Part shown: positions 3,651-29,388 of the stretch, one piece after another
Layout: each line of letters opens with the position of its first letter
How positions within the stretch are numbered: position 1 is the first letter of the stretch
DNA from: Candidatus Nanoarchaeia archaeon
Lineage (GTDB): Archaea; Nanobdellota; Nanobdellia; Woesearchaeales; JANQNC01
Length of the DNA: 32,000 nt
NCBI GenBank assembly: GCA_028279745.1
Contig: JANQNC010000001.1
Coordinates: 720,001 to 752,000 of the forward strand
Direction of reading: 5' to 3'
Notes under the pieces: generated by a model
The model's database searches: none
Told to the model about the DNA's origin: nothing
What the model saw: the letters and a program-made list of their open reading frames with translations, nothing else
Translations under genes and position numbers: made by a program

Positions 3651-3656
3651 AAATAA

Positions 3657-4046: not shown

Positions 4047-4049
4047 AAA

Positions 4050-4595: not shown

Positions 4596-4599
4596 TAAA

Positions 4600-5163: not shown

Positions 5164-5164
5164 G

Positions 5165-5614: not shown

Positions 5615-6189
5615 GAAAAAGAATAAACGTGCAATACAGACGGAAAAGAGAAGGTAAAACAAACTACCGAAAAAGATTAAAACTACTCTTATCAAGAAAA
5701 AACAGAGCAGTAGTAAGAAAATCTAACGGAAACGTATCAGCACAGATAGTGAGCTACGAAGAAAAAGGAGATAAAATAGTTGTAGCAGCAAGCTCAAGAA
5801 CACTAATCAAACAATACGGCTGGAAAGCAAACAGAAGCAATGTACCCGCAGCATACCTAACAGGATTACTATGCGGAAAAAAAGCAGTTAGTGCTGGAGT
5901 AAAAGAAGCAATACTAGACATGGGCTTCCAAACACCACACAACCAAGGGATCGTTTATGCAACACTAAAAGGACTTATCGATGGAGGACTAAGCATCCCA
6001 CACACAGAAGACATAGTACCAACCGAAGACGCAATCCAAGGCAAGAAAATTGAAGAGTACGCAAAAAAACTAAAAGAAGACAAAGAAAAATACGACAAAC
6101 AATTCTCATCATACATAAAAAACAACGTAAACCCAGAAGAAATATCAAAACATTTCACAGAAGTCAAAAACAAAATAATGAGTGAATAA
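5611..6189 (+). CDS. rpl18: 50S ribosomal protein uL18
   Basis: Motifs RRKREGKTNYRKRLKLL, LVVRKSN and NVPAAYLTGLLCGKKA, plus operon position. Confidence 0.9.
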   Translation: MRKRINVQYRRKREGKTNYRKRLKLLLSRKNRAVVRKSNGNVSAQIVSYEEKGDKIVVAASSRTLIKQYGWKANRSNVPAAYLTGLLCGKKAVSAGVKEAILDMGFQTPHNQGIVYATLKGLIDGGLSIPHTEDIVPTEDAIQGKKIEEYAKKLKEDKEKYDKQFSSYIKNNVNPEEISKHFTEVKNKIMSE

Positions 6190-6193
6190 AAAA

Positions 6194-7018: not shown

Positions 7019-7022
7019 TGAT

Positions 7023-7066
7023 GAAAATTAAAAATTTTCAGCATGCAAAAACCTTGGGGGTTTTTT
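7023..7066 (+). other. Stem-loops in the S5-L30 spacer
   Basis: GAAAAT (7023-7028) pairs with ATTTTC (7034-7039). AAAAACC (7047-7053) pairs with GGTTTTT (7059-7065) around the loop TTGGG, and one more T follows. Confidence 0.5.
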
Positions 7067-7069
7067 AAC

Positions 7070-7465
7070 ATGGCCGAAGAAGAAACAAAAAAAGAACCTG
7101 TACAAGCTAAAGAAAAAATAGCAGTTATAAGAATTAGAGGAGAGACAGGAATAAAAAAACCAATTAAGGATACTTTAACAATGCTAAACTTAGGAAGAAA
7201 AAATGTTTGCGCAATAGTGCCAAAAACAAAAGATTACCTCGGAATGTTGCACAAAGTAAAAGATTATGTTACTTATGGAGATGTTGATGAAGCAACAATA
7301 AAAGAACTACAAGAAAAAAGAGGAAAAGAAAACAGAAAAACATTCACACTAAACCCGCCAAGAGGTGGATTTGAAAGAAAAGGCACAAAAAAATCATACA
7401 CACAAAAAGGCGCACTAGGATACAGAGGCGAAAAAATAAAAGAACTAATCAAAAAGATGATTTGA
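7070..7465 (+). CDS. rpl30: 50S ribosomal protein uL30
   Basis: The sequence IAVIRIRGETGIKKPIKDTLTMLNLGRKNVCAIVPKTKDYLGMLHKVKDYVTYG is typical archaeal L30. I preferred the ATG at 7070 (MAEEE). The in-frame ATG at 7043 lies inside an intergenic hairpin and cannot be excluded. Confidence 0.85.
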   Translation: MAEEETKKEPVQAKEKIAVIRIRGETGIKKPIKDTLTMLNLGRKNVCAIVPKTKDYLGMLHKVKDYVTYGDVDEATIKELQEKRGKENRKTFTLNPPRGGFERKGTKKSYTQKGALGYRGEKIKELIKKMI

Positions 7466-7475
7466 GGATTATAAC

Positions 7476-8027
7476 ATGGTTGTAAACAAAAGAAGCAAAG
7501 GCAGCAGAGGACGAGGAAGCTGGACCCACGGATGGGGAGAAAAGAAAAAACACCGAGGAGCAGGAAGCCGAGGTGGAAAAGGAATGGCAGGCTCAGGTAA
7601 AAGAGGAGACTCCAAAAAACCAAGCGTATGGAAAGATAGAAAATACTTAAGCAAACAAGGATTCACATCAAAATCAAGAACGATACCTTCAAAAATAACA
7701 AACGTTGGTAAATTAGACCAAAAACTGAAAGTTCTAGCTGAATTAAAAGTAATAGAAGAGAAAAACGGAGTATATGAAGTGGACGCATCAAAAGTGGGCT
7801 TCACAAAAATACTAGGCGCAGGAAAAATAAACAGCAAAATAAATCTAACAATCGACACAGCTTCAAAAACAGCAATAGAAAAGATAGAAAAAGCGGGTGG
7901 AAAGGTAATCTTACCTTCACTAGATGAAGTAAAAAAAGAAGCTCCTGCTGAAAAGAAAGTTGAAGAAAAACCAGCTCAAGAACCCAAAGAAGAGGCAGAA
8001 GCTGAACCTGTTGCTGAAAAAGAATAA
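7476..8027 (+). CDS. rpl15: 50S ribosomal protein uL15 with an acidic/Lys-rich C-terminal tail
   Basis: The N-terminus GSRGRGSWTHGWGEKKKHRGAGSRGGKGMAGSGKR is the uL15 glycine/basic signature. The tail is EVKKEAPAEKKVEEKPAQEPKEEAEAEPVAEKE. Confidence 0.9.
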   Translation: MVVNKRSKGSRGRGSWTHGWGEKKKHRGAGSRGGKGMAGSGKRGDSKKPSVWKDRKYLSKQGFTSKSRTIPSKITNVGKLDQKLKVLAELKVIEEKNGVYEVDASKVGFTKILGAGKINSKINLTIDTASKTAIEKIEKAGGKVILPSLDEVKKEAPAEKKVEEKPAQEPKEEAEAEPVAEKE

Positions 8028-15291: not shown

Positions 15292-16143
15292 TTATTTCTT
15301 TTTAACTGTAAATATAGCAACTAAAGCGACAACAACCGCTAACAAAATAACCAAAGCAGAAGAACTAACTTCAGGTATGGTTTCACCCCCTTGGTTATCT
15401 GGATTATTGTATAAATCTAAAACTTCAGTCTCGGTTAAAGCTCTATCCCAAACTGCAACTTCATCTAGTAATCCATTATAATAATGCTGAGGAACGGGGC
15501 TGGCACCATCATATCTCGCACGACCCATCTCAAACACACCATAATTGGTATTGAAAGTATTTCCGCTAACAACCGTATATTTAGCACCATTAATGTAAAA
15601 ATCAATAGTCTGACCATCTGAATTAAGAACAACAGCAACATGATTCCATTCGTTGAAGTTTCCAACATAAGCAGAGCCTCCACCTGCGTCAAATCCATCA
15701 ACAACAATTCTAAAATCACCACTATCTGGATCGTTATGATCAATCAGAATGTCAAAAAGCTGATGAGTTGAAGCAGAACCCATACCTAGAATGCCGCCCC
15801 TATAGCTGTATATCCCTTTAAACTGCTCAAGCTGGTAATCAGGGTTAATCCAAAATGATATTGTTCTTTCAGCACTACCTGAAGGAAGATCTGTTGTAGT
15901 CATGGAAACGTAACCCGCATCAGTGCCGTCAAAACTAAATGCATTATCTACTTTTCCAGATACACCTCTTCCTACAACACCATTAACAGTTCCGTCATTA
16001 ACACCTTTTTGATCAATAACATCTCCTGATAACTGATCAAGCTGATAGTAGGATATTAACCCAGTGTCATGATCAAGAACGCCTGCGCTAACAAAAGCAG
16101 AACACAGAAAAATCATAAATGTAAACAAAGTTAGTCTCTTCAT
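15292..16143 (-). CDS. Secreted LamG/concanavalin-A-like lectin domain protein with a C-terminal TM anchor
   Basis: The signal peptide is MKRLTLFTFMIFLCSAFVSAG. The Laminin_G_3-type pattern is YYQLDQLSGDVIDQKGVNDGTVNG...GKVDNAFSFDG...TISFWI...WNHVAVVL...FYINGAKY...GLLDEVAVWDRALTETEVLDLYN. The C-terminus is ALVILLAVVVALVAIFTVKKK. I set the start to the ATG at 16143 because the longer ORF would overlap trmB. Confidence 0.75.
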   Translation of the reverse strand: MKRLTLFTFMIFLCSAFVSAGVLDHDTGLISYYQLDQLSGDVIDQKGVNDGTVNGVVGRGVSGKVDNAFSFDGTDAGYVSMTTTDLPSGSAERTISFWINPDYQLEQFKGIYSYRGGILGMGSASTHQLFDILIDHNDPDSGDFRIVVDGFDAGGGSAYVGNFNEWNHVAVVLNSDGQTIDFYINGAKYTVVSGNTFNTNYGVFEMGRARYDGASPVPQHYYNGLLDEVAVWDRALTETEVLDLYNNPDNQGGETIPEVSSSALVILLAVVVALVAIFTVKKK

Positions 16144-16230
16144 AAAACAGTTAATAGAGTTCCAGTTTAAAAAAGTTTCTAAAAACGCTAGAAAAACGAA
16201 GTTTTTTGTGGAAAAAATGTAAAAATTAAG

Positions 16231-16239
16231 AAAAAAAAA
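16231..16239 (-). terminator. Oligo-T tract downstream of trmB
   Basis: The plus strand has A9, which is T9 on the minus strand. It begins 9 nt past the trmB stop (16248-16250). Archaeal termination typically occurs at oligo-T runs. Confidence 0.4.
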
Positions 16240-16247
16240 GAAGAAAT

Positions 16248-17069
16248 CTATTTCTTCAATGCTGAACCAGCTGCTTTCATGTCTTTCCAAGCAAGGTCAA
16301 ACATGTCATTCATTGCAGATGCAAAGAATGGTGTGTTAACCCAGATTCCCACATCGTAGGTAGGGTGAACATCAGCGTCGTTCATAACCATAAAAGTTAG
16401 TTCTTTGCCGTCAACTAATGCAAATCTTGCATTCACGTTGTGAGCGTTTCTAACTTCCGCAAGTCCTGATAAAGACTTAACTGCACTGCCGCACTCTTTT
16501 GTTATAGGTGCAGCAATCCTAACCTTAACACCTTTTTTCTTAAGCTTTTCAAATACTGGCTTAAGTTGATCAGCTTTTCTGATGAAACCTTGTGTTGTGG
16601 TCATTATAGCAACTGCTTTTTGTGCGTTCTTAACTGTAAGCTCTAAGTGGTCGTATAGGTTTCTTCTTCCTCGGACACTTCCAGATAAATCTGAAGGATC
16701 AACTAACTCGATACCTTGTGTGTGCAGTAAGTTTAGCTCGTTAAGAACATCTGTCTTCTTTAGGTTATCAAGTCTTGATGTTTTCTCTTTTGCATCCTCA
16801 GCAACATTTTTCTTAACTCTCTCAACAACTTCTGTCGGAGGAACTGCAACATACTTGATAGGCTTCCCTAACTTCATCACAACAAAGCCTTTCTTTTCAA
16901 GACTTTCAAGAACGTCATAACTTCTACTTCTTGGAACTGTAGCAATATCTGACAATTCACCCGCAGTAGAAACTCCTCTGCTCAAAAGAGCAGCCCATAT
17001 TTTTACTTCGTATAGATTCAATCCAAAGGATTTCCTCAACTTACTCAAAAATTCATCTTTAACAATCAT
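16248..17069 (-). CDS. TrmB-family transcriptional regulator
   Basis: The N-terminal winged HTH is LYEVKIWAALLSRGVSTAGELSDIATVPRSRSYDVLESLEKKGFVV, followed by a TrmB-like C-terminal domain. The ATG at 17069 is preceded by GGTGA. A TTG at 17108 is an alternative start. Confidence 0.8.
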   Translation of the reverse strand: MIVKDEFLSKLRKSFGLNLYEVKIWAALLSRGVSTAGELSDIATVPRSRSYDVLESLEKKGFVVMKLGKPIKYVAVPPTEVVERVKKNVAEDAKEKTSRLDNLKKTDVLNELNLLHTQGIELVDPSDLSGSVRGRRNLYDHLELTVKNAQKAVAIMTTTQGFIRKADQLKPVFEKLKKKGVKVRIAAPITKECGSAVKSLSGLAEVRNAHNVNARFALVDGKELTFMVMNDADVHPTYDVGIWVNTPFFASAMNDMFDLAWKDMKAAGSALKK

Positions 17070-17305: not shown

Positions 17306-17340
17306 AGAAAAAAATGAAATGGGGGAAAGAGGTAATCATA

Positions 17341-18309
17341 ATGATAAAAGACAAACTAAAAGAAAAAGCAAAACTAAACCCAAAAACAATCGTTTATCCA
17401 GAAGCAACAGAAGAAAGGATACTGCAAGCAGTCTCAAAAATATTAGAAGAAAAAATAGCAAACGTAATCCTGTTAGGAAATGAAGAAGATATAAGAAACA
17501 AAGCAAACGAGATGGGGATTAATGTAGAGGAAGCAAAAATAGTCAATCCAGAAACAGACGAAAGAAAAGAACACTACATAGATTCATTGTATGAATTAAG
17601 AAAAGATAAACTAGTCAATAGAGATGAAGCAAAAGCAATACTAGAAAATTATAATTATTATGGAACTATGATGGTGAAAGAGGGTGATGCGGACGGCATG
17701 ATATCTGGAAGCACACACTCAACAGCAGACACGATAAGGCCTGCACTACAAATAATAAAAACAAAAGAAGGAACAAAAACAGCAAGCGGTGCAATGATAA
17801 TGGAGATAGAAGGAAAAGAGATGTTGTTTGCAGATGTAGCAGTAATACCTTCACCAACTTCTGAGCAACTAGCAGACATAGCTGCAGCAGCGGCAAAGAC
17901 AGCACAGATAATGGAGATGAAACCAAAGATTGCAATGCTAAGCTTCTCAACAAAAGGAAGCTCACAACACGAATCAGTAGAAAAAGTAAGAAAAGCAACA
18001 ATACTTGCAAAAGAAAAAGGACTTAGTGTGGATGGAGAGTTACAAGCGGATGCAGCAATAGTAAAAGAAGTTGCAGAGATGAAATGTTCAGGAGGAGATG
18101 TGTGTGGAGATGCAAACATACTAATATTCCCAGACCTAAACTCAGGCAACATAGGATACAAACTAGTTGAAAGACTTGCAAACTGTGAAGCAATAGGACC
18201 AATAATACAAGGGTTAGACAAACCAGTAAACGACTTATCAAGAGGTTGCAAAGTAGAAGACATAATAGACTTAACAGCATACACAGTTGTTGAGGCACAA
18301 GAAAGATGA
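17341..18309 (+). CDS. pta: Phosphate acetyltransferase (short-form Pta)
   Basis: The protein contains IVYPEATEERILQA..., GDADGMISGSTHSTADTIRPALQII, FADVAVIPSPTSEQLADIA, NILIFPDLNSGNIGYKLVERL and GPIIQGLDKPVNDLSRGC, which are PTA_PTB family signatures. GAGGT lies 7 nt upstream of the ATG at 17341. There is an ATGA overlap with ackA. Confidence 0.85.
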   Translation: MIKDKLKEKAKLNPKTIVYPEATEERILQAVSKILEEKIANVILLGNEEDIRNKANEMGINVEEAKIVNPETDERKEHYIDSLYELRKDKLVNRDEAKAILENYNYYGTMMVKEGDADGMISGSTHSTADTIRPALQIIKTKEGTKTASGAMIMEIEGKEMLFADVAVIPSPTSEQLADIAAAAAKTAQIMEMKPKIAMLSFSTKGSSQHESVEKVRKATILAKEKGLSVDGELQADAAIVKEVAEMKCSGGDVCGDANILIFPDLNSGNIGYKLVERLANCEAIGPIIQGLDKPVNDLSRGCKVEDIIDLTAYTVVEAQER

Positions 18310-19382
18310 ACATATTAGTCTTAAACGTAGGAAGTTCTTCAGTAAAGTACTCAGTCTTCAAAGATGAAAAAGAAATCTTAGAAGGGCTTGTAGATAAGAT
18401 AGGTGAAAAAACCGGAGAATTCAAAGATCATGAAAGCGTTATTGAACATATCGAGAAGGAGTTAGTTAGCAAAAATATTTCTATTGATGTTATAGGACAT
18501 AGAGTAGTACACGGGGGAAAAGAGAAGGAAAGCAAAGTAGTAGATAACGAATTCCTAAAAGAAATAGAAAAATATTCAGACTTGGCACCATTACACAACC
18601 CTCACGAAATAAACGGAATAAAAATATCAAAAAAATTAGGAGCGTTACAAGTTGCAGTATTTGATACCGCATTCCATTCAACCATTCCTTCAAAAGCATC
18701 GACTTACGCTTTACCAAACTCATTATGTAAAAAATATGGAATCAAAAGATATGGGTTTCATGGAATAAGTCATAGTTATATTGCATCAGTTACAGAAGGT
18801 AAAGTAATCTCATGTCATTTAGGGAGCGGATCAAGTGTTTGTGCGATCATCAACGGAAAAAGTGTAGATACCTCAATGGGATTCACACCCGCAGAAGGAT
18901 TAGTCATGGGAACCAGAGCTGGAAGCATAGACCCAGGAATAATACCTTTCTTAATCGAGAAAGAGGAGTACAGTTGGCAACAGATAGAACATGTGTTGAA
19001 TGAGGAATCAGGTTTGAAGGGATTAAGTGGAAAGAATGATTTAAGAGAGTTGTTAACAGATGACTCAAAAGAAGGGAAACTGGCAGTTGACATATTTGTT
19101 TATTCGATTGTGAAACACATCGGAAGTTACGCAGCTGCAATGAATGGCGTAGATGAAATAGTTTTTACTGCAGGCATTGGAGAAAACAGTTCTGAAATTA
19201 GAAAAAGAGTGTGTAATAGTTTAAGTTATCTGGGAGTTATTGTCGATGATGAAAGAAATACTGAGGGTGATATGCTAATAAGTTCTGACAATTCTAAAGT
19301 TAAAGTCAAAGTGATAAAAACAAACGAAGAACTGATGATAGCAAAAGAGGTAAAAAAAGCAGTGACTAAATCTCATATCTAA
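18306..19382 (+). CDS. ackA: Acetate kinase (compact, 358 aa)
   Basis: The protein contains ILVLNVGSSSVKYSVF, GHRVVHGG, LAPLHNP, VFDTAFH, YGFHGISH, CHLGSGSSVCAI, SMGFTPAEGLVMGTRAGSIDPG, FTAGIGENS and KTNEELMIA. Every canonical acetate/propionate kinase motif I can recall is present. Confidence 0.9.
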   Translation: MNILVLNVGSSSVKYSVFKDEKEILEGLVDKIGEKTGEFKDHESVIEHIEKELVSKNISIDVIGHRVVHGGKEKESKVVDNEFLKEIEKYSDLAPLHNPHEINGIKISKKLGALQVAVFDTAFHSTIPSKASTYALPNSLCKKYGIKRYGFHGISHSYIASVTEGKVISCHLGSGSSVCAIINGKSVDTSMGFTPAEGLVMGTRAGSIDPGIIPFLIEKEEYSWQQIEHVLNEESGLKGLSGKNDLRELLTDDSKEGKLAVDIFVYSIVKHIGSYAAAMNGVDEIVFTAGIGENSSEIRKRVCNSLSYLGVIVDDERNTEGDMLISSDNSKVKVKVIKTNEELMIAKEVKKAVTKSHI

Positions 19383-20406
19383 GTATGGAAGCAATACCTC
19401 CCAAACCATCTAACTTCTTACCTGCATCATGATCAGAACTAATAACGTGAACTTCTGCTTTAAGAGAATCTGCCAGCTTCATCAAGTTGTCTGTTTCTTC
19501 ATAGTTATGATCTTCAGATCGTATATAGTTATCAGTGACTAACAAAGTTTTGACAGCACCTGCCTCTATTGACTTCTTTACTTCATCTAAACCATAAGCT
19601 GCAAGCTTGCCTTTAGAAATTTCTGTTAATAATTGCTCAACAACAATAGTCTCTTTGGCAATCCGATCTTCCTTCAGGAGAGTTTTAACTTCATCTCTTT
19701 TTAAGACTTCATCCACACCTTTTCTTCCGGAATCATTACAGGTAGCATAAAATATTTTTTTAGGAAAATCGTCAGGAACTTTTTTCTTAAATTCTTCCTT
19801 CCAAAAACCAGGACTTGCAACAAGAACGCTGTTAACTTCGTACCTATTTAGGTAATCTTGTAGAAGTTTAACAGTTTCAGCAAAAAAATCACCTTTGATT
19901 ACAGAATCATCACCTTTTTTCTGAACATCGCCCCTAGTTTCAAGCAAGATATCATAACCTGAACTTTTTAGAAGTGCGAAAGTTGCAACGTCACGATCCA
20001 GTATGAGAATTAATGTGTTAGATTTTTGTTTACAAGCTTCATCAAGTTTGTCTAACTGGTACTTAAGCCACTTTTCCTTCGTTATTTTTATTTGTGTGTT
20101 TTCTTCAACATTGAATGAATGGTGTGAGCCAGAAGGAACATCTTCAGGACCTTCTCTAACAACACCCAGAATTTTTAGAACATTTGAAGATTTAGTAAAA
20201 TCAACCTTTTCAACCTCAATTGTGATAAAAACGGGTTTACGAACAACCTTTGCATTTTCAGAATCACCAATCTTTACCTTCCTCATAGTCTTACCACTAA
20301 CTAAATCTTTAGGTTCGACAATGTGAGAAAGGTACCACAAGTCATCTAAGCTTTCAGTAGTAAGCTTAACTTCGCCTTTCTTCAAATCTTTATGAGTTAC
20401 TTTCAT
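19366..20406 (-). CDS. pelA: Pelota / aDom34 mRNA surveillance factor
   Basis: The protein starts MKVTHKDLKKGEVKLTTESLDDLWYLSHIVEPKDLVSG (Pelota N-domain). Its eRF1-like central and C domains follow (ATFALL..., VASPGFWKEEF, AVKTLLVTD). At 346 aa it has the expected size. The ORF-track extension to 20865 is antisense to the PIN gene and was rejected. Confidence 0.85.
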   Translation of the reverse strand: MKVTHKDLKKGEVKLTTESLDDLWYLSHIVEPKDLVSGKTMRKVKIGDSENAKVVRKPVFITIEVEKVDFTKSSNVLKILGVVREGPEDVPSGSHHSFNVEENTQIKITKEKWLKYQLDKLDEACKQKSNTLILILDRDVATFALLKSSGYDILLETRGDVQKKGDDSVIKGDFFAETVKLLQDYLNRYEVNSVLVASPGFWKEEFKKKVPDDFPKKIFYATCNDSGRKGVDEVLKRDEVKTLLKEDRIAKETIVVEQLLTEISKGKLAAYGLDEVKKSIEAGAVKTLLVTDNYIRSEDHNYEETDNLMKLADSLKAEVHVISSDHDAGKKLDGLGGIASILRYEI

Positions 20407-20428
20407 GATAGTTAGTTTAGGGTTGAGG

Positions 20429-20436
20429 TATAAAAA
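20429..20436. promoter_or_regulatory. Candidate shared or bidirectional TATA element between pelota (minus) and the PIN gene (plus)
   Basis: The plus strand reads TATAAAAA and the minus strand TTTTTATA. The centre is ~26 nt upstream of the pelota ATG at 20406 (leaderless) and ~57 nt upstream of the PIN ATG at 20489. Confidence 0.4.
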
Positions 20437-20488
20437 GGTAGTGGAAAATGGGGAAACAAATAAAAAGGACAGAAAGAATTCACATAAT

Positions 20489-20938
20489 ATGAAAGAGTTA
20501 TTAGATTCTTTAGAGAGAGTTAACAGTGTTGACAAATTATTTGACACCTGCTTTATCCTATATGAAATAGAACACAACAAAGGAAACAAGCTGGAAGGGG
20601 GCATGACAAGCTTTACAGCACAAGAACTGATACATGTAATGCACAAAGTAAAACCAGAACTAAAGCTAAAAGCAAGACACTTCTTAAAAAAATGCAACCT
20701 CAAAATTATTGAGATAAATGTTAATCCTGGAAATGCTGAACAAGAAAGAAACTTCACAGAAACAGTAGACAATGAGCTATTAAAAGAGGTTAGAGATCCT
20801 TCAGATGCAGTGTTAATAGCAACAGCAATACAAAAAAAGATAGATAAAATATATACAAGGGACAAACACCACTTATATACAACAGAGCTAGAAAATTATC
20901 TTCAAAAATATGGGATTACAGTATATAATACAATATAA
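20489..20938 (+). CDS. PIN-domain protein (putative ribonuclease), solitary
   Basis: The acidic residues have PIN-like spacing: LFDTCFILYEIE ... DPSDAVLIATAIQKKIDKIYTRDKH. I placed the start at the first ATG downstream of the predicted TATA box, but it is uncertain. Confidence 0.6.
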   Translation: MKELLDSLERVNSVDKLFDTCFILYEIEHNKGNKLEGGMTSFTAQELIHVMHKVKPELKLKARHFLKKCNLKIIEINVNPGNAEQERNFTETVDNELLKEVRDPSDAVLIATAIQKKIDKIYTRDKHHLYTTELENYLQKYGITVYNTI

Positions 20939-20998: not shown

Positions 20999-22198
20999 AT
21001 GAGAAGAAAAGGACAATCTGGGACAGGCACTGCAACATTAATCACAATAATAGCTGCATTAATCATATTATATATATTATTCATACCGCCAGCAGAACGA
21101 GCAAAACTTCTGGGAGATGACAACGAAACAGTAACCGAAAAAGACAAAGACACAGCAAAAAAAACAGAAGAGCTTGAAAACGAAACCTTGTTGCTTGAAT
21201 ATCCTGGAAGCATAACCTATCAACAATCATCAAGAAAAGAGTATGCTGATTTTCCAACAGTCTACCTGTCTAGCCAGACAACATCTGGAGTTATAGGAGA
21301 AGCAAATGCAATATTCGTAGAAAGAAACATATTCAAAGAAAAAACAGAAAGTGTTAGGTTTGACATAGAAAACACAGAAGAAGTAGACAGCATATTTGTA
21401 AGCTTCAAAGCAAAAGAAAGAGATGGGATACTAGTTCTGAAAGTGAATGGACAGACATTCTACGAAAACAGACTAAGAACAACCGCAGTTAACCCGATCA
21501 ACATACCAAAAACTGAACTAGTCAATGGAGAAAATGTATTGGAGATAACAACAAACCACCCAGGATTACTGTTTTGGGATTCTAACAGATACATACTAGA
21601 AAACGTACAAGTAATCACAGACGTGAAACAACTGGGAAATCTAGAAGCAGAAGTAAGCTTCTATGTTGGTGAGGAGAACAGCAACGTAAAAGATGCAAGA
21701 GTAAGCTTCTTCCCAGACTGTCAAACAGGAACAATAGGCAAACTAAACATCGAGATAAACAACAAATTGCTGTACTCAGCACTACCTGATTGCGGAATGG
21801 CAAAACCGATAAGTTTTGATCCAACATACATAAGACAAGGACAAAACAACATAAAATTCACAACAAGCAAAGGACTGTATGTTTTGGATAGCATGAGAGT
21901 AGAAACAACATTAAAAGAACAACTAAACCCAACATACTACTTCAAAATAAGCTCTGACTTAGCTGAAGACATAGAAGGAAACTATTATGATGCAATATTA
22001 ACACTTAACTTCGCAGATGACGATGAACTAAAAGTGGCAGACATAGTAGTTAATGGTGACTATTTCCCAATAAGCCAAAGAGACTCAAAATACGAGGAAG
22101 ACATCTCTAACTATCTACAACAAGGCAATAACGCAATAAAGATAATCCCTGAAAGCAACATGGACATTATCGACATAAGAGTAGAACTAGAGGAATAA
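20999..22198 (+). CDS. Surface protein with an archaeal class III (type IV pilin-like) signal peptide and three tandem ~90 aa beta-rich repeats
   Basis: The N-terminus MRRKGQSGTGTATLITIIAALIILYILFIPP has basic residues, KG|Q and a hydrophobic helix, matching the archaeal prepilin peptidase motif. Three internal repeats share the pattern xVNGxxF...(Q/N)GxNxIxI...IxxIxVE (aa ~116-207, 216-303, 311-398). A TATA box and AGGTGA lie upstream. Confidence 0.7.
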   Translation: MRRKGQSGTGTATLITIIAALIILYILFIPPAERAKLLGDDNETVTEKDKDTAKKTEELENETLLLEYPGSITYQQSSRKEYADFPTVYLSSQTTSGVIGEANAIFVERNIFKEKTESVRFDIENTEEVDSIFVSFKAKERDGILVLKVNGQTFYENRLRTTAVNPINIPKTELVNGENVLEITTNHPGLLFWDSNRYILENVQVITDVKQLGNLEAEVSFYVGEENSNVKDARVSFFPDCQTGTIGKLNIEINNKLLYSALPDCGMAKPISFDPTYIRQGQNNIKFTTSKGLYVLDSMRVETTLKEQLNPTYYFKISSDLAEDIEGNYYDAILTLNFADDDELKVADIVVNGDYFPISQRDSKYEEDISNYLQQGNNAIKIIPESNMDIIDIRVELEE

Positions 22199-22319
22199 GT
22201 TGCTGACACACTACTTAAAAAAAGAGAGGTAGACGAAAAATGAAGTTTTTCGAACCTCTAAGAATAGAGGTGTTCTGAAAATAGCAGTAGATCAAGACGT
22301 CTTAGAAAAAGAGAACAAA

Positions 22320-24251
22320 GTGCTCAGGGAAGCAATAAGAAATAACAGAAATAATTCTTTCGGAAACTTAAACAGAGAAGAACAGATAAGACAAAAAGAG
22401 CTAAGACTAGAAGAAGAAAAACAAAGGCTGGCTGAAAAACAGTTTCAAGAATCAAAACTAGACAAAGCAAAAGCTTACGGAAGTGCTGCCGCAGGAAAAG
22501 CTGCATTTGCAGGTAAGAAAACAATAGGCGCATTAGACAAATTAACGAACGCAAAATACATGGGAAAAACAATCGTGCAAGCACCCATAAAAGTAATAGG
22601 TGGAATAGCAAACAGAGGTGGAGGAATAATATTTCTTGTAATAATCATCATGCTTGTATACGGAGCATTTTCTTTAACGTGGGCAGGACAAGAACCACTA
22701 CAACAACAAGCAGGACTACTGTGGGAAGGAATAAAGAACATAGGGTCAAAACCATTCGAAATCTACAACAACTATCTAACACAACTAGAACTTCAACTAA
22801 ATGGAAGTTTCTATAGAGGTGTCCAAGAAACCAAAGGAAAAGATTTTGGGATAAAGATAGTCAACTTACAGACACCTGTGCTAAAAGACACATTTGAAGA
22901 CCAACCAATAGAGATATGGGGCGACATAGATGGAGAATTTAATGAAGATTTAGTAGAAAAACTAAGCAGTGCAGGAGATATAATGCTAACATGCAGGACA
23001 AATGACGATGAAAACGGAACAGTAAGCCCAGAAACAATATCAATGTGGGATCTATATGCAGGAAGGCAAGGATTTACATGCGAGATACCTGAAGCAGAAG
23101 AAGGAGTCAAAACAGTATTCATAGAAGCAACATATCCTTTCAGAACAACAGCATACAAAGAGGTGCCATTACTGGAGAAAACACAAAGAGACATACTACT
23201 AAAAGAAGCACCATCAGAACTAGACAGGTTTAAGCAAGATCTGGCAGTGTCAAGCGGAGGACCTGCAACAATAGGACTCCACATAGACTCACCTTTCCCC
23301 GTTGTTGTTGATAGCACAGTATGTCCAGGAGAACCCTATGAACTAACAAGTGGATGTTTTGCATTCGCAACATTCTCGATATACCGAGAGACAACATCAA
23401 CAAGTGAACTCTTTAAAGAGATACAGGACATAACAATCTCACCAGAAAACGAAGGGATGATACTGCAGGAATGCAGCCCAATAAGGTTCAACAAAGTAGG
23501 AACTGAATGGAAAGCAGTTAGTGAAGATCTAGAAAAATATAAAGACTACACAGGAACAATAAGTTCAAAATGTGACGTAATATTCCAAGATCCAGATTTA
23601 TTACTTGGGGAAAACAGAGCAAATGCAAACTCAGTTCCGATAAAAATATCAGCAGATTACTTATTCACGAAAAAAATACCAAAATCGATCATAGTAAAAG
23701 AATCAACATACAACCTAATAACTGCAGAAGCATCACAAGTAAAAAAATACTTTGAAAGCAAAAACTCAGAGTTAACAGATTCGGTCGGGTGGATGGAACG
23801 AGAATCCCAAAGAACAAACATACCGCTAACTGTAATAGCAGGAGTTGCGTCACTAGAAAGCAACAATGGAAAAAGCGGATTATCAACACAAAGCAAAAAT
23901 CTTTACGGGATTAAATGTACATCTTCATGGGAAAGTCAAGGAAAGCCTTGCAAAGACTACCCAAAAAGCGACTTAGATAAAACTTACGAACCAGACGCGC
24001 CAAACAAATATAGAGAATATGGAAATTGGGAAGAATCCATAACTGACTTTGTAAACTTAATAAGCACAAGCAGCATATACTCTGAAGCAATGCAACACAC
24101 AGACAATGCAGCAGAAATGCTAAAATACATACACGGATACGAATGCAGAACAGACAGCACAAAATGCGTATACTCCACATACCCCCTATGGGCAAGCGCG
24201 ATAACAACCAGAATCAAAGACATGAGTGAAGAAGAGGTAACAGTAGCATGA
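22320..24251 (+). CDS. Membrane-anchored multidomain protein with a C-terminal GH73-like N-acetylglucosaminidase (peptidoglycan hydrolase) domain
   Basis: The N-terminal segment is charged and helical. One TM helix (GGGIIFLVIIIMLVYGAFSLTW) is followed by a ~370 aa extracytoplasmic region. The C-terminal ~145 aa carries GH73/FlgJ-type motifs: VIAGVASLESNNGKS (compare AALESGWG, putative catalytic Glu513 at nt 23856-23858), KNLYGIK (compare NLFGIK), YREYGNWEESITDFVNLI and YSTYPLWASAI (compare YATDPxYAxKL). The GTG start at 22320 is uncertain, and an in-frame ATG at 22560 is the alternative. Confidence 0.75.
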   Translation: MLREAIRNNRNNSFGNLNREEQIRQKELRLEEEKQRLAEKQFQESKLDKAKAYGSAAAGKAAFAGKKTIGALDKLTNAKYMGKTIVQAPIKVIGGIANRGGGIIFLVIIIMLVYGAFSLTWAGQEPLQQQAGLLWEGIKNIGSKPFEIYNNYLTQLELQLNGSFYRGVQETKGKDFGIKIVNLQTPVLKDTFEDQPIEIWGDIDGEFNEDLVEKLSSAGDIMLTCRTNDDENGTVSPETISMWDLYAGRQGFTCEIPEAEEGVKTVFIEATYPFRTTAYKEVPLLEKTQRDILLKEAPSELDRFKQDLAVSSGGPATIGLHIDSPFPVVVDSTVCPGEPYELTSGCFAFATFSIYRETTSTSELFKEIQDITISPENEGMILQECSPIRFNKVGTEWKAVSEDLEKYKDYTGTISSKCDVIFQDPDLLLGENRANANSVPIKISADYLFTKKIPKSIIVKESTYNLITAEASQVKKYFESKNSELTDSVGWMERESQRTNIPLTVIAGVASLESNNGKSGLSTQSKNLYGIKCTSSWESQGKPCKDYPKSDLDKTYEPDAPNKYREYGNWEESITDFVNLISTSSIYSEAMQHTDNAAEMLKYIHGYECRTDSTKCVYSTYPLWASAITTRIKDMSEEEVTVA

Positions 24252-25171
24252 AAAAAATATTATTTGTTTTGACACTGCTATCAGTACTTATTCTAGCAGG
24301 ATGTGGACAAAGTAGTGAGGGTGATGTAGCAGTAGACGAAAGAGTAAAAACAGGAACAAGAGGAATGCAAATGGAATTCATAAGAGACATCCCTTATAAT
24401 AACGAAGCATACGAACAAGAACAATTTCCACTGGCACTAACAATACGAAATGAAGGGGGATACGACATAACACAAGGATGGTTGGCAATGACAACAGAAG
24501 GACCTGTAGACGTCCTTTCAGTAGAAAGAAGTGGAACTGTCTACCAATTTGCAACACCAAACGACCCCTTGGGCGGAAAAGGGTTTGGAGAGACAGGGCA
24601 GAGTAGAAGGATAGAAGCAAACTTAAGAGCAAATGAAATAGCATTAACAAAAGAACAACAAGCAACAATAACAACAAAAGCATGCTATCAATATCAAACA
24701 ACACTAGTACAAAAAATATGCATCGACCCAGACATAAACCAAGAATTCCTAAGAATCAAACCCTGTAAGTACAAAAAAGACACAGGTATAAGCGGAGGAC
24801 AAGGTGCACCGGTAAGCGTAACAAATGTAGAATTCAAAAGAATACCTTATGGAAATAACATACAACCAGTATTTAAGTTAACAGTAACAAATAATGAAGG
24901 TGGAAAAATAATAGAAGAAGGAAACACTGGGGGAGCGTGCAGTACAGGAATAATTGCAGGAGCTTTCAACAAAATAAAAGCAGAAGCAAAAATAGGAGAT
25001 GAAAGACTAAGCTGTATACAAAAAGATGAAGACAGCCAAATATACATAGAATGTACAGGATCACAAATATCACAAAGCAAAACATCAGGCTACAAAGACA
25101 TAGTTGTTGATTTATACTACGGTTATATAATAGAAGACGAGAAAAATATAAGACTGCTAAAAAAAGAGTAA
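24248..25171 (+). CDS. Putative lipoprotein, paralog A (two CARDB-like beta-sandwich halves)
   Basis: The signal peptide and lipobox are MKKILFVLTLLSVLILAGC. Shared family motifs are LALTIRNEGGYD, ACYQYQTTLVQKICIDP, GGQGAPVSVTNV, FKLTVTNNEGG and VVDLYYGYI. There is an ATGA overlap with the upstream hydrolase gene. Confidence 0.75.
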   Translation: MKKILFVLTLLSVLILAGCGQSSEGDVAVDERVKTGTRGMQMEFIRDIPYNNEAYEQEQFPLALTIRNEGGYDITQGWLAMTTEGPVDVLSVERSGTVYQFATPNDPLGGKGFGETGQSRRIEANLRANEIALTKEQQATITTKACYQYQTTLVQKICIDPDINQEFLRIKPCKYKKDTGISGGQGAPVSVTNVEFKRIPYGNNIQPVFKLTVTNNEGGKIIEEGNTGGACSTGIIAGAFNKIKAEAKIGDERLSCIQKDEDSQIYIECTGSQISQSKTSGYKDIVVDLYYGYIIEDEKNIRLLKKE

Positions 25172-25231
25172 AAACAACAACATTATATAGAAAAGTTTAA
25201 ATAAGCAAATAGACGGATTTAATATACAAAA

Positions 25232-26116
25232 ATGAAAGGAAAAAACATACTACTAACACTAGCAATAATCGCAGTAATTCTAGCAGGATGTGAGCAAGGA
25301 GGACAAGGAACTGAAGGAGACACATCAACAGGAGTATACATAGGAACACAATCAATAGAAATACAATACAGAGAAGGACTACCCTATAGTCCAGTAACAA
25401 TAGATGATAAAGTAGATATAGGTGTTGAAGTAAAAAATTACGGCGCTGAAGATTTAACAGGTGGAAAAATAATGGTTGAAGGGATAACTTCAACAAACGT
25501 AGCAGTACAATCATTAACTGTTGAGGGAAAAGACACATCAGGAAGAAGTTATGGTGGGCCAGAGTACATAACATTCGAAAACATACCAATAGAAGGAGAC
25601 CAATCAATCATAGTAACCGCATGCTACCCATACAAAACAAAACTGGTAAAGAACTTCTGCTATGATCCAACCATAGGAACACAAACAAGAGAAGAAGTTT
25701 GCTCATTCCAAACACAAAATGCTATTAAAGACGGACAAGGAGCACCAATAGCAGTAACAAACGTACAGATAGACAGAAGAGAAAGAGGAGACAAAGCAAA
25801 ACTCATAATAACACTAGAAAACAAAGGAACTGGAAATATAAGAACACCATCAAAACCAACAATAGACTGTGACGGACAAGTACCAACACAAAACGACATA
25901 AACAGAATAAGGATAGATAAAGCAACATTCTCAGGAAAAACAGGAAATTGCAATCCAACAGTTGGTGGGTTGGTTGTAATGGAAAACGGAAAAGCAGTAG
26001 TAAGTTGTGAATATGCAGGAATGGGAACAACAACATCACAAAGACAGCTAGACCTAGAACTATCATATGGCTACGTAAGCCAATCAAAAATAAAAGAAAT
26101 CAAAGTTGAAACTTAA
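25232..26116 (+). CDS. Putative lipoprotein, paralog B
   Basis: The signal peptide and lipobox are MKGKNILLTLAIIAVILAGC. Family motifs are IGVEVKNYGAED, ACYPYKTKLVKNFCYDP, DGQGAPIAVTNV, LIITLENKGTG and LDLELSYGYV. Confidence 0.75.
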   Translation: MKGKNILLTLAIIAVILAGCEQGGQGTEGDTSTGVYIGTQSIEIQYREGLPYSPVTIDDKVDIGVEVKNYGAEDLTGGKIMVEGITSTNVAVQSLTVEGKDTSGRSYGGPEYITFENIPIEGDQSIIVTACYPYKTKLVKNFCYDPTIGTQTREEVCSFQTQNAIKDGQGAPIAVTNVQIDRRERGDKAKLIITLENKGTGNIRTPSKPTIDCDGQVPTQNDINRIRIDKATFSGKTGNCNPTVGGLVVMENGKAVVSCEYAGMGTTTSQRQLDLELSYGYVSQSKIKEIKVET

Positions 26117-26130
26117 AGGAGGACAACAAA

Positions 26131-27090
26131 ATGAAAAAAGCAATATCACTAACATTCTTGTTGGCATCGTTAATGCTACTAGCAGGGTGTGGAGAACAAG
26201 AAGTAACAACAGATGCAACAAAAACATTCATAGGTGGAACAACAGGCTTAGTAATGAGCTTTGAACCAGGCTTCCCACCAGAAGAAGTATTTGATGCAGG
26301 AAACTCACCATTCGACATAGATATCAAACTAAAGAATGAAGGAGAATACACAGTAGCTTCAGGCGACGTAGAAGCAAGAATAGTTGGGCCATATGCACCT
26401 GACTTCGGCGTAAGTGAAAATGACTTAGTAAAATCAAGTGCAGAAAGCATACTGGCAAAATCAACAAGCACAGAAGGACAGGTAATAGAGGGTGGAGAAA
26501 GCCACATAATCTTCACAAACCTAAATTATGGACAAGAGCTATCCGGAAATGAACTGAATAACTATAGAGCAGACATCTGCTACACATACGGAACAGAAGC
26601 AGTAACACAAATATGTGTGCTGAAAGATCTACTAAGAACAACATCAAGCAACATCTGTAACGTAAATGAAGAAAAGGAAGTGAGAAATTCAGGAGCACCA
26701 GTACAGATAACAAAGATAACAGAAAGCAGATACGGAACACAAGACATTGGGATAACCTTAGACATAGCAAACATAGGTGTTGGAGAAGTATACCAAAAAC
26801 AAATGAAATGTGATGCTACACAGCTAAAAGAAAAGAACAAAGTTTGGGTAGAAATAGACTCAGGATTAGAAACCCAACCAACATGTTCTGGATTAAAAGA
26901 TGAAGCAGGAAGCACAATAAGCGGTAATGCAGGATATGTAACATTAAGCCCAGACACAAAAACAACAAGATTAACATGTGTGCAGAAAGCAACAACACAA
27001 CAAGACTTCATAAAAACAGTCAACTTCAACTTAGAGTATGACTATTATGAAACAAAAGACTGGCAGTTGTTAATAAAACATCTAGGATAA
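26131..27090 (+). CDS. Putative lipoprotein, paralog C
   Basis: AAGGAGG at 26116-26122 precedes the ATG. The signal peptide and lipobox are MKKAISLTFLLASLMLLAGC. Family motifs are IDIKLKNEGEYT, ICYTYGTEAVTQICVLKD, NSGAPVQITKI, IGITLDIANIGVG and FNLEYDYY. Confidence 0.75.
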   Translation: MKKAISLTFLLASLMLLAGCGEQEVTTDATKTFIGGTTGLVMSFEPGFPPEEVFDAGNSPFDIDIKLKNEGEYTVASGDVEARIVGPYAPDFGVSENDLVKSSAESILAKSTSTEGQVIEGGESHIIFTNLNYGQELSGNELNNYRADICYTYGTEAVTQICVLKDLLRTTSSNICNVNEEKEVRNSGAPVQITKITESRYGTQDIGITLDIANIGVGEVYQKQMKCDATQLKEKNKVWVEIDSGLETQPTCSGLKDEAGSTISGNAGYVTLSPDTKTTRLTCVQKATTQQDFIKTVNFNLEYDYYETKDWQLLIKHLG

Positions 27091-27120: not shown

Positions 27121-28434
27121 TTATTTTCCTAAAGAAATATCTTCGTCTTCTAAATTAGAAAGTTCCGTGAAATCTGAGGCGAGACGCTTAATAATCTCCT
27201 GTTCTTTCCTTTCTTTAGCTTTAATTACACGATTAAGATGATCAACATGATCATTTAACTCAGAAATTCTAGACTTATAATCTATCTCTAGTTCCACATT
27301 GTCTTTGCTCATGCTGCTAATTTCTTGATTGAACTTTTTCTTAGCAGACTCAAGACTGTTTTCAAAAAATAGCTGTTTGTCTAAAAGTTCCTTATTTTTC
27401 TTCTTCAAAAGCTCTTTAAGCTCAGAAACAGTCAAATTGAGATTGTCAACCTCTTCGATAAGGTGCTTATTTTCTTTGTCAAAAACAGATAATCTTGCCT
27501 TAGAAGCGTCAAGCTCATCCTCAAAGTTCTTGTTCTTTCTTTCATCAACATTAAGCCTTTCCCGATAAGAGATCATATCATTATTAAGATGGATTATCTG
27601 CTGTTCTTTCTCGATTATATTTCTTTTAAGCGAGTCTATATTTACATTAAGTTTTTCAACCAACTGATCTCTCTTTTTTAATTCAGTATGAAGACTTTGA
27701 AGCTGCAAAAGCTTTTCCTTAACATTACCCTTCAAAGAATCAACATCAGTATTAAGATGCTTAAGCTGCATATTCTTTTCAGTGTTGAATCCAGATAACT
27801 CTTGGTTGAGCTTGTCAAATTTAAGGAGTTCATTTTCTAAAACTCTTATTTGCTTCTTTAAACCATCTGAAGCAGAAATCTCATAGTCAAGTCTATCGGT
27901 AATTCTTCCTTTCTTAGCAGATAAAAAAGTAAGTTGTCTCCCTTTAACTTCCAAATCTTTAGAAAGCATGTTGTTAATCTTATTCATCTTAACAACTTCA
28001 GAACTCAACAGGGCAATCTCTTTCTTAGCTTGTTCAGCAACACTTGCAAAAGTATCCTTATCTTGAGAACACATCTTCAGCTTTTTTTCAAGGAAGTCAC
28101 ATCTTTTAGACAAGTCTTTGATTGTTGAGTTAAGTTGTTTAGTATCTTTAGATAATAAAGTGTTTTCTTCAAGAATATTAAGATGTTTGTCTTCTTTCTT
28201 TCTTTGTGTGGATAACTCTTTAGTTAATCTGTCATTTAATGAGTTTAATTTGATTAAATCTTGTTTGAAAAGACTAACTTGACTTCTAAGCTCTTTATTT
28301 TCAGCCAGTAAGTCATTAATTTCAGAATCAAACTCTTGTTTTCTTCCAAGTTTTGATCTAAGTTCTTCCAATTCGGAATTCAACTTATTAAAAGACTCAG
28401 AAATAGGATCCAAAACCTCTTTTTTTCTTTTCAT
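27121..28434 (-). CDS. Hypothetical all-coiled-coil protein (437 aa)
   Basis: The sequence is heptad-like and rich in Leu/Lys/Glu/Asn/Ser along its whole length. It has no TM segment, no Walker motif and almost no Pro/Gly. It starts 6 nt after the rfcS stop, so it is probably co-transcribed. Confidence 0.7.
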   Translation of the reverse strand: MKRKKEVLDPISESFNKLNSELEELRSKLGRKQEFDSEINDLLAENKELRSQVSLFKQDLIKLNSLNDRLTKELSTQRKKEDKHLNILEENTLLSKDTKQLNSTIKDLSKRCDFLEKKLKMCSQDKDTFASVAEQAKKEIALLSSEVVKMNKINNMLSKDLEVKGRQLTFLSAKKGRITDRLDYEISASDGLKKQIRVLENELLKFDKLNQELSGFNTEKNMQLKHLNTDVDSLKGNVKEKLLQLQSLHTELKKRDQLVEKLNVNIDSLKRNIIEKEQQIIHLNNDMISYRERLNVDERKNKNFEDELDASKARLSVFDKENKHLIEEVDNLNLTVSELKELLKKKNKELLDKQLFFENSLESAKKKFNQEISSMSKDNVELEIDYKSRISELNDHVDHLNRVIKAKERKEQEIIKRLASDFTELSNLEDEDISLGK

Positions 28435-28440: not shown

Positions 28441-29388
28441 TTATTTTAGTACAAAGTTAGCCAGTAAAGCTTCAAGCTGTATGAATTCGTCACTTCCTTC
28501 AACAAGCCTAAATTCAATCTCTCCACATTTATCAACCAATGCAACTTTCTGTCTTCCATCCAGATCTAAATCCCAGATCTGCGCTTGAATCTGTTTTATC
28601 ACATCCAAGCCCGAAAGACCATATTTCAGCATAACATCTAATAATAAGGATCTTGCTTTTATAAAATCACCTTTAATTGCCACTTCTAACATAGTTTTAA
28701 TCTCTGCAGGCTTAGCGACAGAAGCCACACTAAAAATCAAAGACTCATCAATATTTTTTGAAACTGCTGCACAGCTCTGCATAATATTCTCTAACCTTCT
28801 GCAATCCCCACCAGATACTTCAAACAAAGCATCTTTAGCTTTATCATCAACCTTAATACCTTCCTCTTTTGCAACATGATCTATCAAAGATATCATATCT
28901 TCCTTTTCTAGATTTTTAAATCTAAATACTGCACATCTTGACTGGATAGGATCAATTATTTTTGAGCTGAAATTGCATGATAGAATGAACCTTGTAGTCT
29001 TAGTAAAATTTTCCATAGTTCGCCTTAATGCTTGTTGAGCATCTTTAGTCAAAGCATCACACTCATCCAAGAAAATTATTTTAAAAGGAACATCACCAAT
29101 TGCTCTTGTTCTTGCAAAATCTTTAACTTTTACACGTACAACATCTATGCCTCTTTCATCAGACGCGTTAAGCTCTAAAAAGTTTTGATGCCAAGAATCA
29201 CCAAACAATGTTTTAGCAACAACCAAAGCTAACGTGGACTTACCAACACCTGCAGGACCTGCAAACATCAAATGAGGAAGATTGTTCTGCTTAACAAAAG
29301 CATCAACCTTCTCTATAATGTCTTTCTGACCTTTAACATCATCAAAAGTCTGAGGCCGGTATTTTTCAGTCCAAATAGAGTCTACCAT
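28441..29388 (-). CDS. rfcS: Replication factor C small subunit
   Basis: The protein contains WTEKYRPQTFDDVKGQ, Walker A GPAGVGKST, Walker B/DEAD-like IIFLDECDALT, sensor SRC and the RFC box pattern. At 315 aa it contains no intein. Confidence 0.9.
   Translation of the reverse strand: MVDSIWTEKYRPQTFDDVKGQKDIIEKVDAFVKQNNLPHLMFAGPAGVGKSTLALVVAKTLFGDSWHQNFLELNASDERGIDVVRVKVKDFARTRAIGDVPFKIIFLDECDALTKDAQQALRRTMENFTKTTRFILSCNFSSKIIDPIQSRCAVFRFKNLEKEDMISLIDHVAKEEGIKVDDKAKDALFEVSGGDCRRLENIMQSCAAVSKNIDESLIFSVASVAKPAEIKTMLEVAIKGDFIKARSLLLDVMLKYGLSGLDVIKQIQAQIWDLDLDGRQKVALVDKCGEIEFRLVEGSDEFIQLEALLANFVLK

Follow-up and report, generated by a model that had tools for sequence, protein, structure and literature searches.

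A putative surface-displayed GH73 murein hydrolase on a conserved scaffold with an exchangeable catalytic head in a Woesearchaeota-type archaeon

We analyzed a 32,000-nucleotide stretch of archaeal DNA (contig JANQNC010000001.1, positions 720,001 to 752,000; hereafter "the window"), focusing on an open reading frame (ORF) with a GTG start at 22320–24251 on the + strand. This ORF, the second gene of a five-gene envelope cassette, encodes a 643-residue type II membrane protein (identical to database protein P0001, called on a 1.30-Mb NCBI contig) in which a scaffold is followed by a C-terminal GH73 module. We consider it reasonably probable that this protein is a surface-displayed, contact-acting murein hydrolase used against the walls of bacterial hosts or prey; we infer its activity, its substrate, and its use upon contact from the comparisons described below. 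In addition, the GH73 module is the exchangeable part of a conserved scaffold: the closest scaffold relatives carry VanY, SLT, or M23 domains at the same place.

The identity of the C-terminal module (residues 472–643; 23733–24248, +) as GH73 is confirmed by profile and sequence searches, far beyond chance. Specifically, Pfam family PF01832 (Glucosaminidase) matched residues 493–635 (nucleotides 23796–24224; profile positions 5–121 of 123) at E = 5.3e-15. The score of 56.6 bits clears the gathering cut-off of 30.2 bits, and the isolated C-terminus scored 59.8 bits. A previous sequence-only reading of this DNA had placed a GH73-type domain in the last ~145 residues, almost exactly the interval that PF01832 matched, and the hmmscan that it proposed as a check thus proved significant. 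Partial GsmA/FlgJ matches to the module were found in NCBIfam, PHROG endolysin families matched it with E-values down to 4e-17, phmmer matched four solved FlgJ GH73 domains at E ~ 1e-4, and tblastn matched 32 phage records that bear the annotation glucosaminidase, lysin, or muramidase. A word-indexed search using the GH73 module alone gave zero matches.

The hallmarks of GH73 and the roles of its residues are described in the AtlA structure paper (PMC9108991), and most of them can be located in the module. Glu513 (codon 23856–23858, +) aligns at the sequence level with the FlgJ Glu and hence with the proton donor that is strictly conserved in GH73 (AtlA E212, Auto E122, FlgJ E184), and it is invariant both in the alignment with phage lysins and in all six Woesearchaeal GH73 modules. 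The SLES at residue 511 aligns with the corresponding GH73 block, in agreement with the earlier proposal of Glu513 as the catalytic acid. The motif N527-L-Y529-G530-I-K532 (23898–23915, +), which had been recognized as KNLYGIK, fits the NLFGIK-type motif of the family (AtlA F229, G230, K232): N527, L528, and G530 are invariant in the alignment with phage GH73 lysins, and K532, the equivalent of AtlA K232, matches the catalytic-site Lys. The FRxY / SI-D block of GH73 is present at residues 564–576, where YREYGNW (residue 564) aligns with the (F/Y)RxYxSxxxSxxDYxxLL pattern seen in the same reading. The assignment of a GH73 fold is consistent with a structural comparison, in which we modeled the module on its own from a two-sequence alignment. 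When this low-confidence model was searched with Foldseek, GH73 structures ranked first, led by FlgJ 5dn4 (probability 1.0, TM-score 0.45–0.48) and followed by 5t1q, Auto, TM0633, LytB, and SagB, and then by g-type lysozymes and lytic transglycosylases; E-values were no better than 1e-2 and TM-scores no better than 0.48. Segment 472–643 is probably a catalytically active GH73 N-acetylglucosaminidase.

The rest of the protein is predicted to hold this module outside the cell (all coordinates on the + strand). A basic N-terminal region, predicted to be cytoplasmic (residues 1–99, 22320–22616; net charge +10), is largely taken up by a predicted long helix (AlphaFold2, residues 2–59) and is weakly conserved in the relative P0002. 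It leads into a single transmembrane anchor (residues ~100–122, 22617–22685; AlphaFold2 helix 102–121), which by hydropathy and charge would be an internal signal-anchor with a positive-inside bias, in a protein without a cleavable N-terminal signal. The flanking charges (+2 before the anchor, −2 after it) and the placement of all 10 Cys residues C-terminal of it, on the predicted outside, indicate an N-in/C-out orientation. Beyond the anchor, a helical stalk (residues 127–171, 22698–22832) is followed by a beta-rich ectodomain (residues 177–466, 22848–23717) that defines the scaffold family. The ectodomain has six Cys residues, of which C225, C254, C385, and C418 are invariant or nearly so across the family; the other four Cys residues lie in the GH73 module (533/544 and 609/616). 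In the full-length AlphaFold2 model, built on a 29-sequence alignment of the scaffold family, most of the ectodomain has a pLDDT (per-residue confidence) above 90, and the GH73 part has values of 30–50. A Foldseek search of the ectodomain against PDB and BFVD gave no specific relative, only generic tandem beta-sandwiches with TM-scores of at most 0.26, and when PDB sequences were searched with profiles of the three cassette families, matches were confined to the signal-peptide level, with none for the ectodomain profile. Altogether, the model predicts that the anchor, the stalk, and an ectodomain of ~290 residues with disulfides display the enzyme outside the cell. The earlier reading had already proposed a transmembrane anchor and extracellular display on a long stalk, which agrees with the predicted topology and with a stalk region of ~350 residues. 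What it took for an anonymous stalk is, however, part of a conserved scaffold family that comprises the N-terminal 470 residues and includes the ectodomain.

We used residues 96–470 as the query in a full HMMER scan of 1.84 billion representatives and obtained 30 proteins with E < 1e-3. Word-indexed searching with the profile of the ectodomain yielded only 3. Among the scaffold matches, Pfam recognized SLT in four, glucosaminidase in two, M23 in one, and VanY/M15 in one, invariably C-terminal of the ectodomain. P0002, whose ectodomain is 49% identical to that of the window protein, carries VanY/M15, and homology between the two proteins ends at residue 462, directly after the last ectodomain strand. 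P0003 (29% ectodomain identity) carries SLT, and the scaffold of locus L004 (27%) carries M23. Many of the relatives have 2 to 4 or more N-terminal transmembrane segments instead of one.

A census of 60 complete scaffold genes gave a broader view of the C-terminal position. In 34 of these genes at least 90 residues extend beyond the ectodomain, and in 25 fewer than 40 do. Pfam assigned 13 of the 34 extensions to SLT, 5 to glucosaminidase, 1 to M23, and 1 to Phage_lysozyme2, with fn3 in some, so that at least 20 of the 60 scaffolds have a murein-cleaving end. These counts depend on Pfam thresholds, as divergent SLT heads exist below them: jackhmmer finds 24 SLT-like members where Pfam finds 13. 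In one locus (L100:909-4550), a scaffold of 1213 residues bears tandem heads, a glucosaminidase (residues 888–1031) and an Amidase_2 (residues 1064–1183), which is the enzyme pair of bacterial Atl-type autolysins.

The GH73 modules themselves have a history that differs from that of the gene. The GH73-bearing scaffolds L025, L034, L054, and L063 are long polytopic forms whose ectodomains are only 22–28% identical to that of the window protein, and their GH73 modules are 30–41% identical to the window module (E 1e-15 to 1e-27). The best phage match to the module is far weaker (E 3e-6). Scanning metagenomes with the Woesearchaeal GH73 module brought up four further scaffold-GH73 fusions within the cassette, one of them the tandem-headed scaffold of L100. 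In the available data no bacterial donor of the module could be identified, and its nearest relatives are other Woesearchaeal modules. By these comparisons, the gene is ancestral to the lineage and the GH73 domain is mobile, circulating among Woesearchaeal surface proteins. Consequently, the earlier view that the gene is not a recent insertion stands for the gene but not for its GH73 domain, which is exchangeable on the scaffold.

Outside the archaea, the domain has its closest relatives among lysins of Firmicutes phages, which would speak for an artefact, that is, a bacterial or phage contaminant, a chimeric assembly, or a very recent transfer of the whole gene. This explanation is effectively refuted. 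The GC content is uniform (0.32–0.39) across the window with no break at the gene, the family that includes the N-terminal 470 residues is of archaeal lineage, independent assemblies repeat the gene order, and the module is much closer to Woesearchaeal modules than to any phage match. The sequence-only reading had likewise argued against a contaminating or chimeric contig, and the archaeal neighbors of the gene agree with it. Its remark that the gene shares an A-rich composition with its neighbors holds for + strand genes throughout the window.

The range of heads found at the one C-terminal position is what points to a substrate. GH73, SLT/GH23, and lysozyme heads target the glycan backbone, M23 the peptide cross-links, VanY/M15 the D-Ala-D-Ala terminus, and Amidase_2 the MurNAc-L-Ala bond (MurNAc, N-acetylmuramic acid). 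D-amino-acid and MurNAc chemistry is missing from archaeal envelopes and from pseudomurein (established knowledge; PMC12352652). Since all of the alternative heads act on murein and archaeal envelopes lack such chemistry, the substrate would be bacterial peptidoglycan. The same heads bear on the possibility that the enzyme is directed at the cell's own surface, trimming envelope glycans (e.g., the chitobiose core of N-glycans) or an own wall polymer. The Pfam name of the family, "mannosyl-glycoprotein endo-beta-N-acetylglucosaminidase", could be taken in this sense, scaffold and cassette belong to the core envelope genes whether a warhead is present or not, and an atypical YATD signature (see below) could reflect an altered substrate. 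Nevertheless, the VanY/M15, M23, Amidase_2, and SLT domains that relatives carry at the same position have substrates specific to bacterial murein, namely D-Ala-D-Ala, murein cross-bridges, MurNAc-L-Ala, and MurNAc-GlcNAc (GlcNAc, N-acetylglucosamine) with 1,6-anhydro formation, and no murein synthesis genes were seen within the window. We therefore assign self-directed remodeling a very low probability.

For a murein hydrolase aimed at bacteria, the mechanism that we propose is the following. The transmembrane helix, helical stalk, and beta-rich ectodomain would hold the GH73 module on the surface and away from the membrane. Upon contact, the enzyme would cut the GlcNAc-beta-1,4-MurNAc bonds of bacterial peptidoglycan and thereby locally open or loosen the wall of the bacterium, be it host or prey. 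An archaeon that makes no murein would need no immunity to such an enzyme. Different Woesearchaeota have attached different warheads at the one C-terminal position: GH73, SLT/GH23, phage-type lysozyme, M23, VanY/M15, GH73 plus Amidase_2, or none. Action upon contact is suggested by the transmembrane tether, together with the lack of a diffusible form or of a wall-binding domain.

The same domain identity and surface display would also fit nutrient scavenging, in which the tethered enzyme digests free peptidoglycan fragments or dead walls for the uptake of amino sugars and peptides, with no contact with live cells. Tethering would retain the products close to the cell, a fermentative pta-ack pair lies within the window, and Woesearchaeota have been described as degraders of cellular compounds (PMC9723730). 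On the other hand, neither the cassette nor the window contains genes for amino-sugar uptake or catabolism, the enzyme sits within a conserved envelope cassette rather than a catabolic operon, and the M23, VanY, and SLT warheads of its relatives would be typical of wall breaching rather than of catabolism. Scavenging seems to us an unlikely account of the enzyme.

Several observations weigh against a wall-cutting role. The YATD signature is degenerate, and its correspondence is ambiguous. In one alignment it is Y618-S-T620-Y621...W624, with the Asp replaced by Tyr (AtlA Y310, T312, D313, Y316). In the other it is Y607...T611-D612, spread across an insertion bounded by Cys609 and Cys616, and close relatives without the insertion have YA(S/T)D. 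The match of YSTYPLWASAI to YATD made in the earlier reading is thus supported as to the motif at residue 618, but not as to a unique correspondence. The second catalytic acid is uncertain as well: Asp546 (PCKDY) aligns with the PT-EY of phage lysins, with T, G, or K in the archaeal relatives, and the other candidate is Glu557, within the conserved YEP-APN motif. A Pfam scan of the whole protein at E ≤ 1 found PF01832 only, with no PG_binding, LysM, SH3, or similar domain. The dedicated model of the module is of low confidence (mean pLDDT 53, predicted TM-score 0.55). Finally, the 25 of the 60 complete scaffolds with short C-termini carry no warhead (a quarter to a half of scaffolds overall), which implies that the cassette does not primarily serve to degrade walls but has another main function, probably in the architecture of the envelope or of cell contacts.

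The first of these points are also what would be expected if the GH73 fold had been kept as a peptidoglycan-binding head that no longer hydrolyzes its ligand. With Tyr621 in place of the YATD Asp, no clear conservation of the second acid, and no separate wall-binding domain, the module itself would have to do the binding. However, none of the six Woesearchaeal modules, at only 30–41% identity, has lost the proton-donor Glu or the FG-K motif, and the second catalytic Glu, on a beta-hairpin, is conserved only in GH73 clusters 1–2 (PMC9108991), so its absence is not diagnostic. We consider an inactive adhesin improbable, and a hydrolase acting on bacterial walls remains our preferred reading.

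The gene belongs to a cassette of five genes (20999–27090, +) in which no gene has a Pfam family except for the optional hydrolase head. Gene 1 (20999–22198, +) encodes 399 residues with a conserved N-terminus (MRRKGQSGTGTATLITIIAALIILYILFIPP) whose consensus is (K/R)(G/A)(Q/E)(S/A), a hydrophobic stretch, and PP-ER (including L004:3592, L005:8749, and L007:8807). From general knowledge of archaeal pilins we take this N-terminus to resemble a class III (pilin-type, or prepilin) signal. At ~400 residues the protein is unusually large for a prepilin-like signal, and no prepilin peptidase or pilus ATPase gene lies nearby. Genes 3 (24248–25171, +; 307 residues, lipobox LAGC), 4 (25232–26116, +; 294 residues), and 5 (26131–27090, +; 319 residues) encode lipoprotein-like proteins that are paralogous to one another; in addition to a lipobox Cys, they have six Cys residues that are conserved. 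The start of gene 3 overlaps the stop of gene 2 (ATGA), which is consistent with an operon. A weak GH108 match in gene 3 (E = 0.056) was treated as noise. Comparison of the scaffold ectodomain (22848–23717) with genes 3–5 (24248–27090) by hhalign gave a probability of 74% and E = 2.8e-5 over 170 columns, which suggests that the ectodomain is a distant paralog of these proteins. If so, the cassette would encode four related ectodomains with different anchors.

We examined the cassette in loci L004, L005-L008, L015-L094, and L097-L100, with the RFC side visible only where the contig reaches it. The order is fixed: pelota (−), the ~400-residue protein, the scaffold, three proteins of ~300 residues, a coiled-coil ORF (−), and the RFC small subunit (−). 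It was seen in the window, L004, L005-L008, L097, and L100, with RFC on the far side in L005-L008, and a hidden Markov model search of the ORFs of 80 GTDB loci recovered it in nearly every sufficiently long locus. Pelota adjoined the cassette in all relatives that we inspected. The five-gene cassette is vertically inherited in the Woesearchaeota-type lineage. We asked whether it could be a component of a type IV secretion system or type IV pilus machine and rejected this candidate, as none of the loci has an ATPase or platform gene close to the cassette; gene 1, with its pilin-like N-terminus, offers the sole hint in that direction. More tentatively, the pelota-linked cassette may be a core surface or host-contact apparatus of Woesearchaeota, with the scaffold as a platform on which warheads, single or double, are repeatedly exchanged or lost; we regard this as possible but doubtful.

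Related enzymes occur on other surface proteins of these archaea. The closest GH73 relative of the window module (42% identity) lies on a 359-residue protein with a pilin-like N-terminus (MKSKKAMIFEF...). Before it come several small ORFs that likewise start in a pilin-like manner, and this cluster (L096:714-4683, and also L095) suggests a pilus-like display of the same GH73 enzyme. A few kilobases from a cassette with a head-less scaffold, a protein of 1782 residues combines Peptidase_M23 with a GDSL lipase (L005:19857-21746; L006:13674-15563), indicating that wall- and lipid-degrading domains are also found on other giant proteins of the lineage.

Murein hydrolases have been reported before in Woesearchaeota/Pacearchaeota and other archaea (PMC8204110, PMC9723730, PMC10936187, PMC12352652), so that an archaeal one can no longer count as highly unexpected. 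Castelle et al. 2021 (PMC8204110) proposed an attack of Woesearchaeota on bacterial walls, and the same was reported for further metagenome-assembled genomes (MAGs) by Vigneron et al. 2022 (PMC9723730) and by Zhang et al. 2024. Strock et al. 2025 (PMC12352652) found modular peptidoglycan hydrolases in ~5% of archaeal genomes, prominently in Nanoarchaeota, and reported a haloarchaeal M23 enzyme that kills bacteria and a PF01832-containing partner named Danwoldo. Our finding is an incremental refinement of this published idea of archaeal murein hydrolases aimed at bacteria. We did not find earlier descriptions of the GH73 head in this lineage, of the scaffold ectodomain or its paralogous relation to the lipoproteins encoded next to it, of the cassette, of the membrane tethering, or of the exchange of at least six domain types.

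The nearest precedents are the large extracellular SLT proteins of Woesearchaeota/Pacearchaeota, the same lineage as here (fam00969, PMC8204110; AR20 of Castelle 2015; GH23 genes, PMC9723730). They share with the window protein a murein-cleaving glycosidase domain on a large lineage-specific extracellular protein and a proposed role in attack on, or attachment to, bacterial walls. The window protein, by contrast, has GH73 rather than SLT/GH23, although other scaffold members have SLT at the same position. These SLT-bearing members may be the same proteins as those of the fam00969 type; the scaffold ectodomain, the pelota/RFC cassette, and the exchange of warheads at one position are not mentioned for the latter in the cited papers. 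Compared with Danwoldo (UniProt J2ZJU5) and Woldo of Halogranum salarium, and with the modular archaeal hydrolases generally (PMC12352652), the window protein shares PF01832 with Danwoldo, along with a presumed bacterial peptidoglycan target, and replacement of catalytic domains on a constant partner was likewise noted in that survey. Danwoldo, however, is secreted (Tat signal) and soluble and has two PG_binding_1 domains, whereas the window protein is predicted to be membrane-anchored, has no recognized wall-binding domain, and lies in an envelope cassette. The survey defined modular hydrolases by at least one catalytic domain and at least one recognized cell-wall-binding domain (PMC12352652). 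The window protein, with PF01832 only, falls outside this definition, and since the survey required a wall-binding domain, scaffold-GH73 proteins would have been missed.

With the bacterial GH73 structures (FlgJ 5dn4 and 2zyc/3vwo, Auto 3fi7, AtlA, LytB, TM0633) the module shares the Pfam family, the aligned Glu, and the FG-K motif, but it is only ~21–28% identical to them and differs in its degenerate YATD, Cys-bounded insertions, and uncertain second acid. It is also used by an organism without murein, and hence would be neither an autolysin nor a flagellar-rod enzyme. The closest non-archaeal relatives (26–37% identity) are phage endolysins and virion-associated glucosaminidases (PHROG 3513, Bacillus phage Wip1 lysin, Thermus phage phiFa muramidase). 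Like virion-associated lysins, the window enzyme would act from outside on a foreign wall; unlike phage lysins, it is non-viral: a membrane scaffold of the cell carries it, and its gene lies in a housekeeping neighborhood of the chromosome. VirB1, PrgK, TcpG, and CwlT are membrane-anchored hydrolases of bacterial secretion and conjugation machines, which open a local gap in the peptidoglycan and often have interchangeable or multiple catalytic domains. Here the resemblance is by analogy only: we detected no homology, the target wall would be a foreign one, and, unlike in those systems, no secretion ATPase, coupling protein, or other type IV secretion or pilus component lies near the cassette.

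Peptidoglycan-degrading genes have served as the chief clue in genomes that some Woesearchaeota, which are among the most widespread uncultured archaea, exploit bacteria. Our analysis sets one such gene in a defined envelope cassette, with an enzyme that is predicted from its topology to be membrane-tethered rather than secreted and whose catalytic head is a swappable module, with six or more kinds of murein-specific domain in the one place. The hypothesis of bacterial exploitation thereby becomes testable. If the proposed role of the cassette were true, the warhead at this one locus would tell lineages that exploit bacteria from those with wall-less or archaeal partners, and would show the wall chemistry that is targeted. 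The locus would then be a genomic predictor of DPANN host range, and enzyme specificity could identify hosts.

The neighborhood of the cassette is that of an archaeal chromosome. The earlier placement of the gene between pelota/PIN and RFC, in an archaeal housekeeping context, was confirmed. Pelota (19366–20439, −), a neighbor kept in L004, L005, and L007, forms the left syntenic boundary of the cassette, and the RFC small subunit (28441–29388, −) forms the right one. The neighbors that we tested were archaeal or neutral only: S4e, L6, S5, L15, SecY, an EMC3/TMCO1-like insertase, a two-subunit archaeal PheRS, TrmB, pelota, the RFC small subunit, a Tyr/Trp-tRNA synthetase, and the pta-ack pair. 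Relatives of gene 1 occur in 90 GTDB species-representative genomes, and the meaningful labels among these are all Woesearchaeota/Nanoarchaeia/Nanobdellota, including the complete AR15 chromosome. From these relatives, the source of the window would be a Woesearchaeota-type DPANN archaeon. Whole-protein scans of GTDB genomes and metagenomes found no relative, and no tRNA or Rfam features were found in the window. Many GTDB MAGs titled "uncultured Methanosarcinales archaeon" (L017, L019, L020, L027, L028, and others) carry the Woesearchaeota-type cassette; these titles are probably taxonomic mislabels from an automated pipeline.

A PIN-domain gene (20405–20938, +) lies between pelota and gene 1 but is missing at that spot in L004 and L005, and it is probably a local insertion into an otherwise conserved neighborhood. 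On the other side of the cassette, the coiled-coil-rich ORF before RFC (27121-28434, −) is conserved in position; it encodes 437 residues without a Pfam family, its counterparts have 304 residues in L005 and 268 in L007, and its PHROG matches were all weak, among them one to a holin family (E = 7e-4) that was treated as noise. Upstream of the cassette lie a Laminin_G_3 (concanavalin-like lectin) protein (15292–16290, −) and the bacterial-type pta-ack pair (17314–19382, +), and the order pta-ack-pelota-cassette is shared with L004. At the start of the window (1–8000), the ribosomal-protein operon on the + strand has an AT skew of 0.48–0.62, an extreme bias of A over T in the coding strand.

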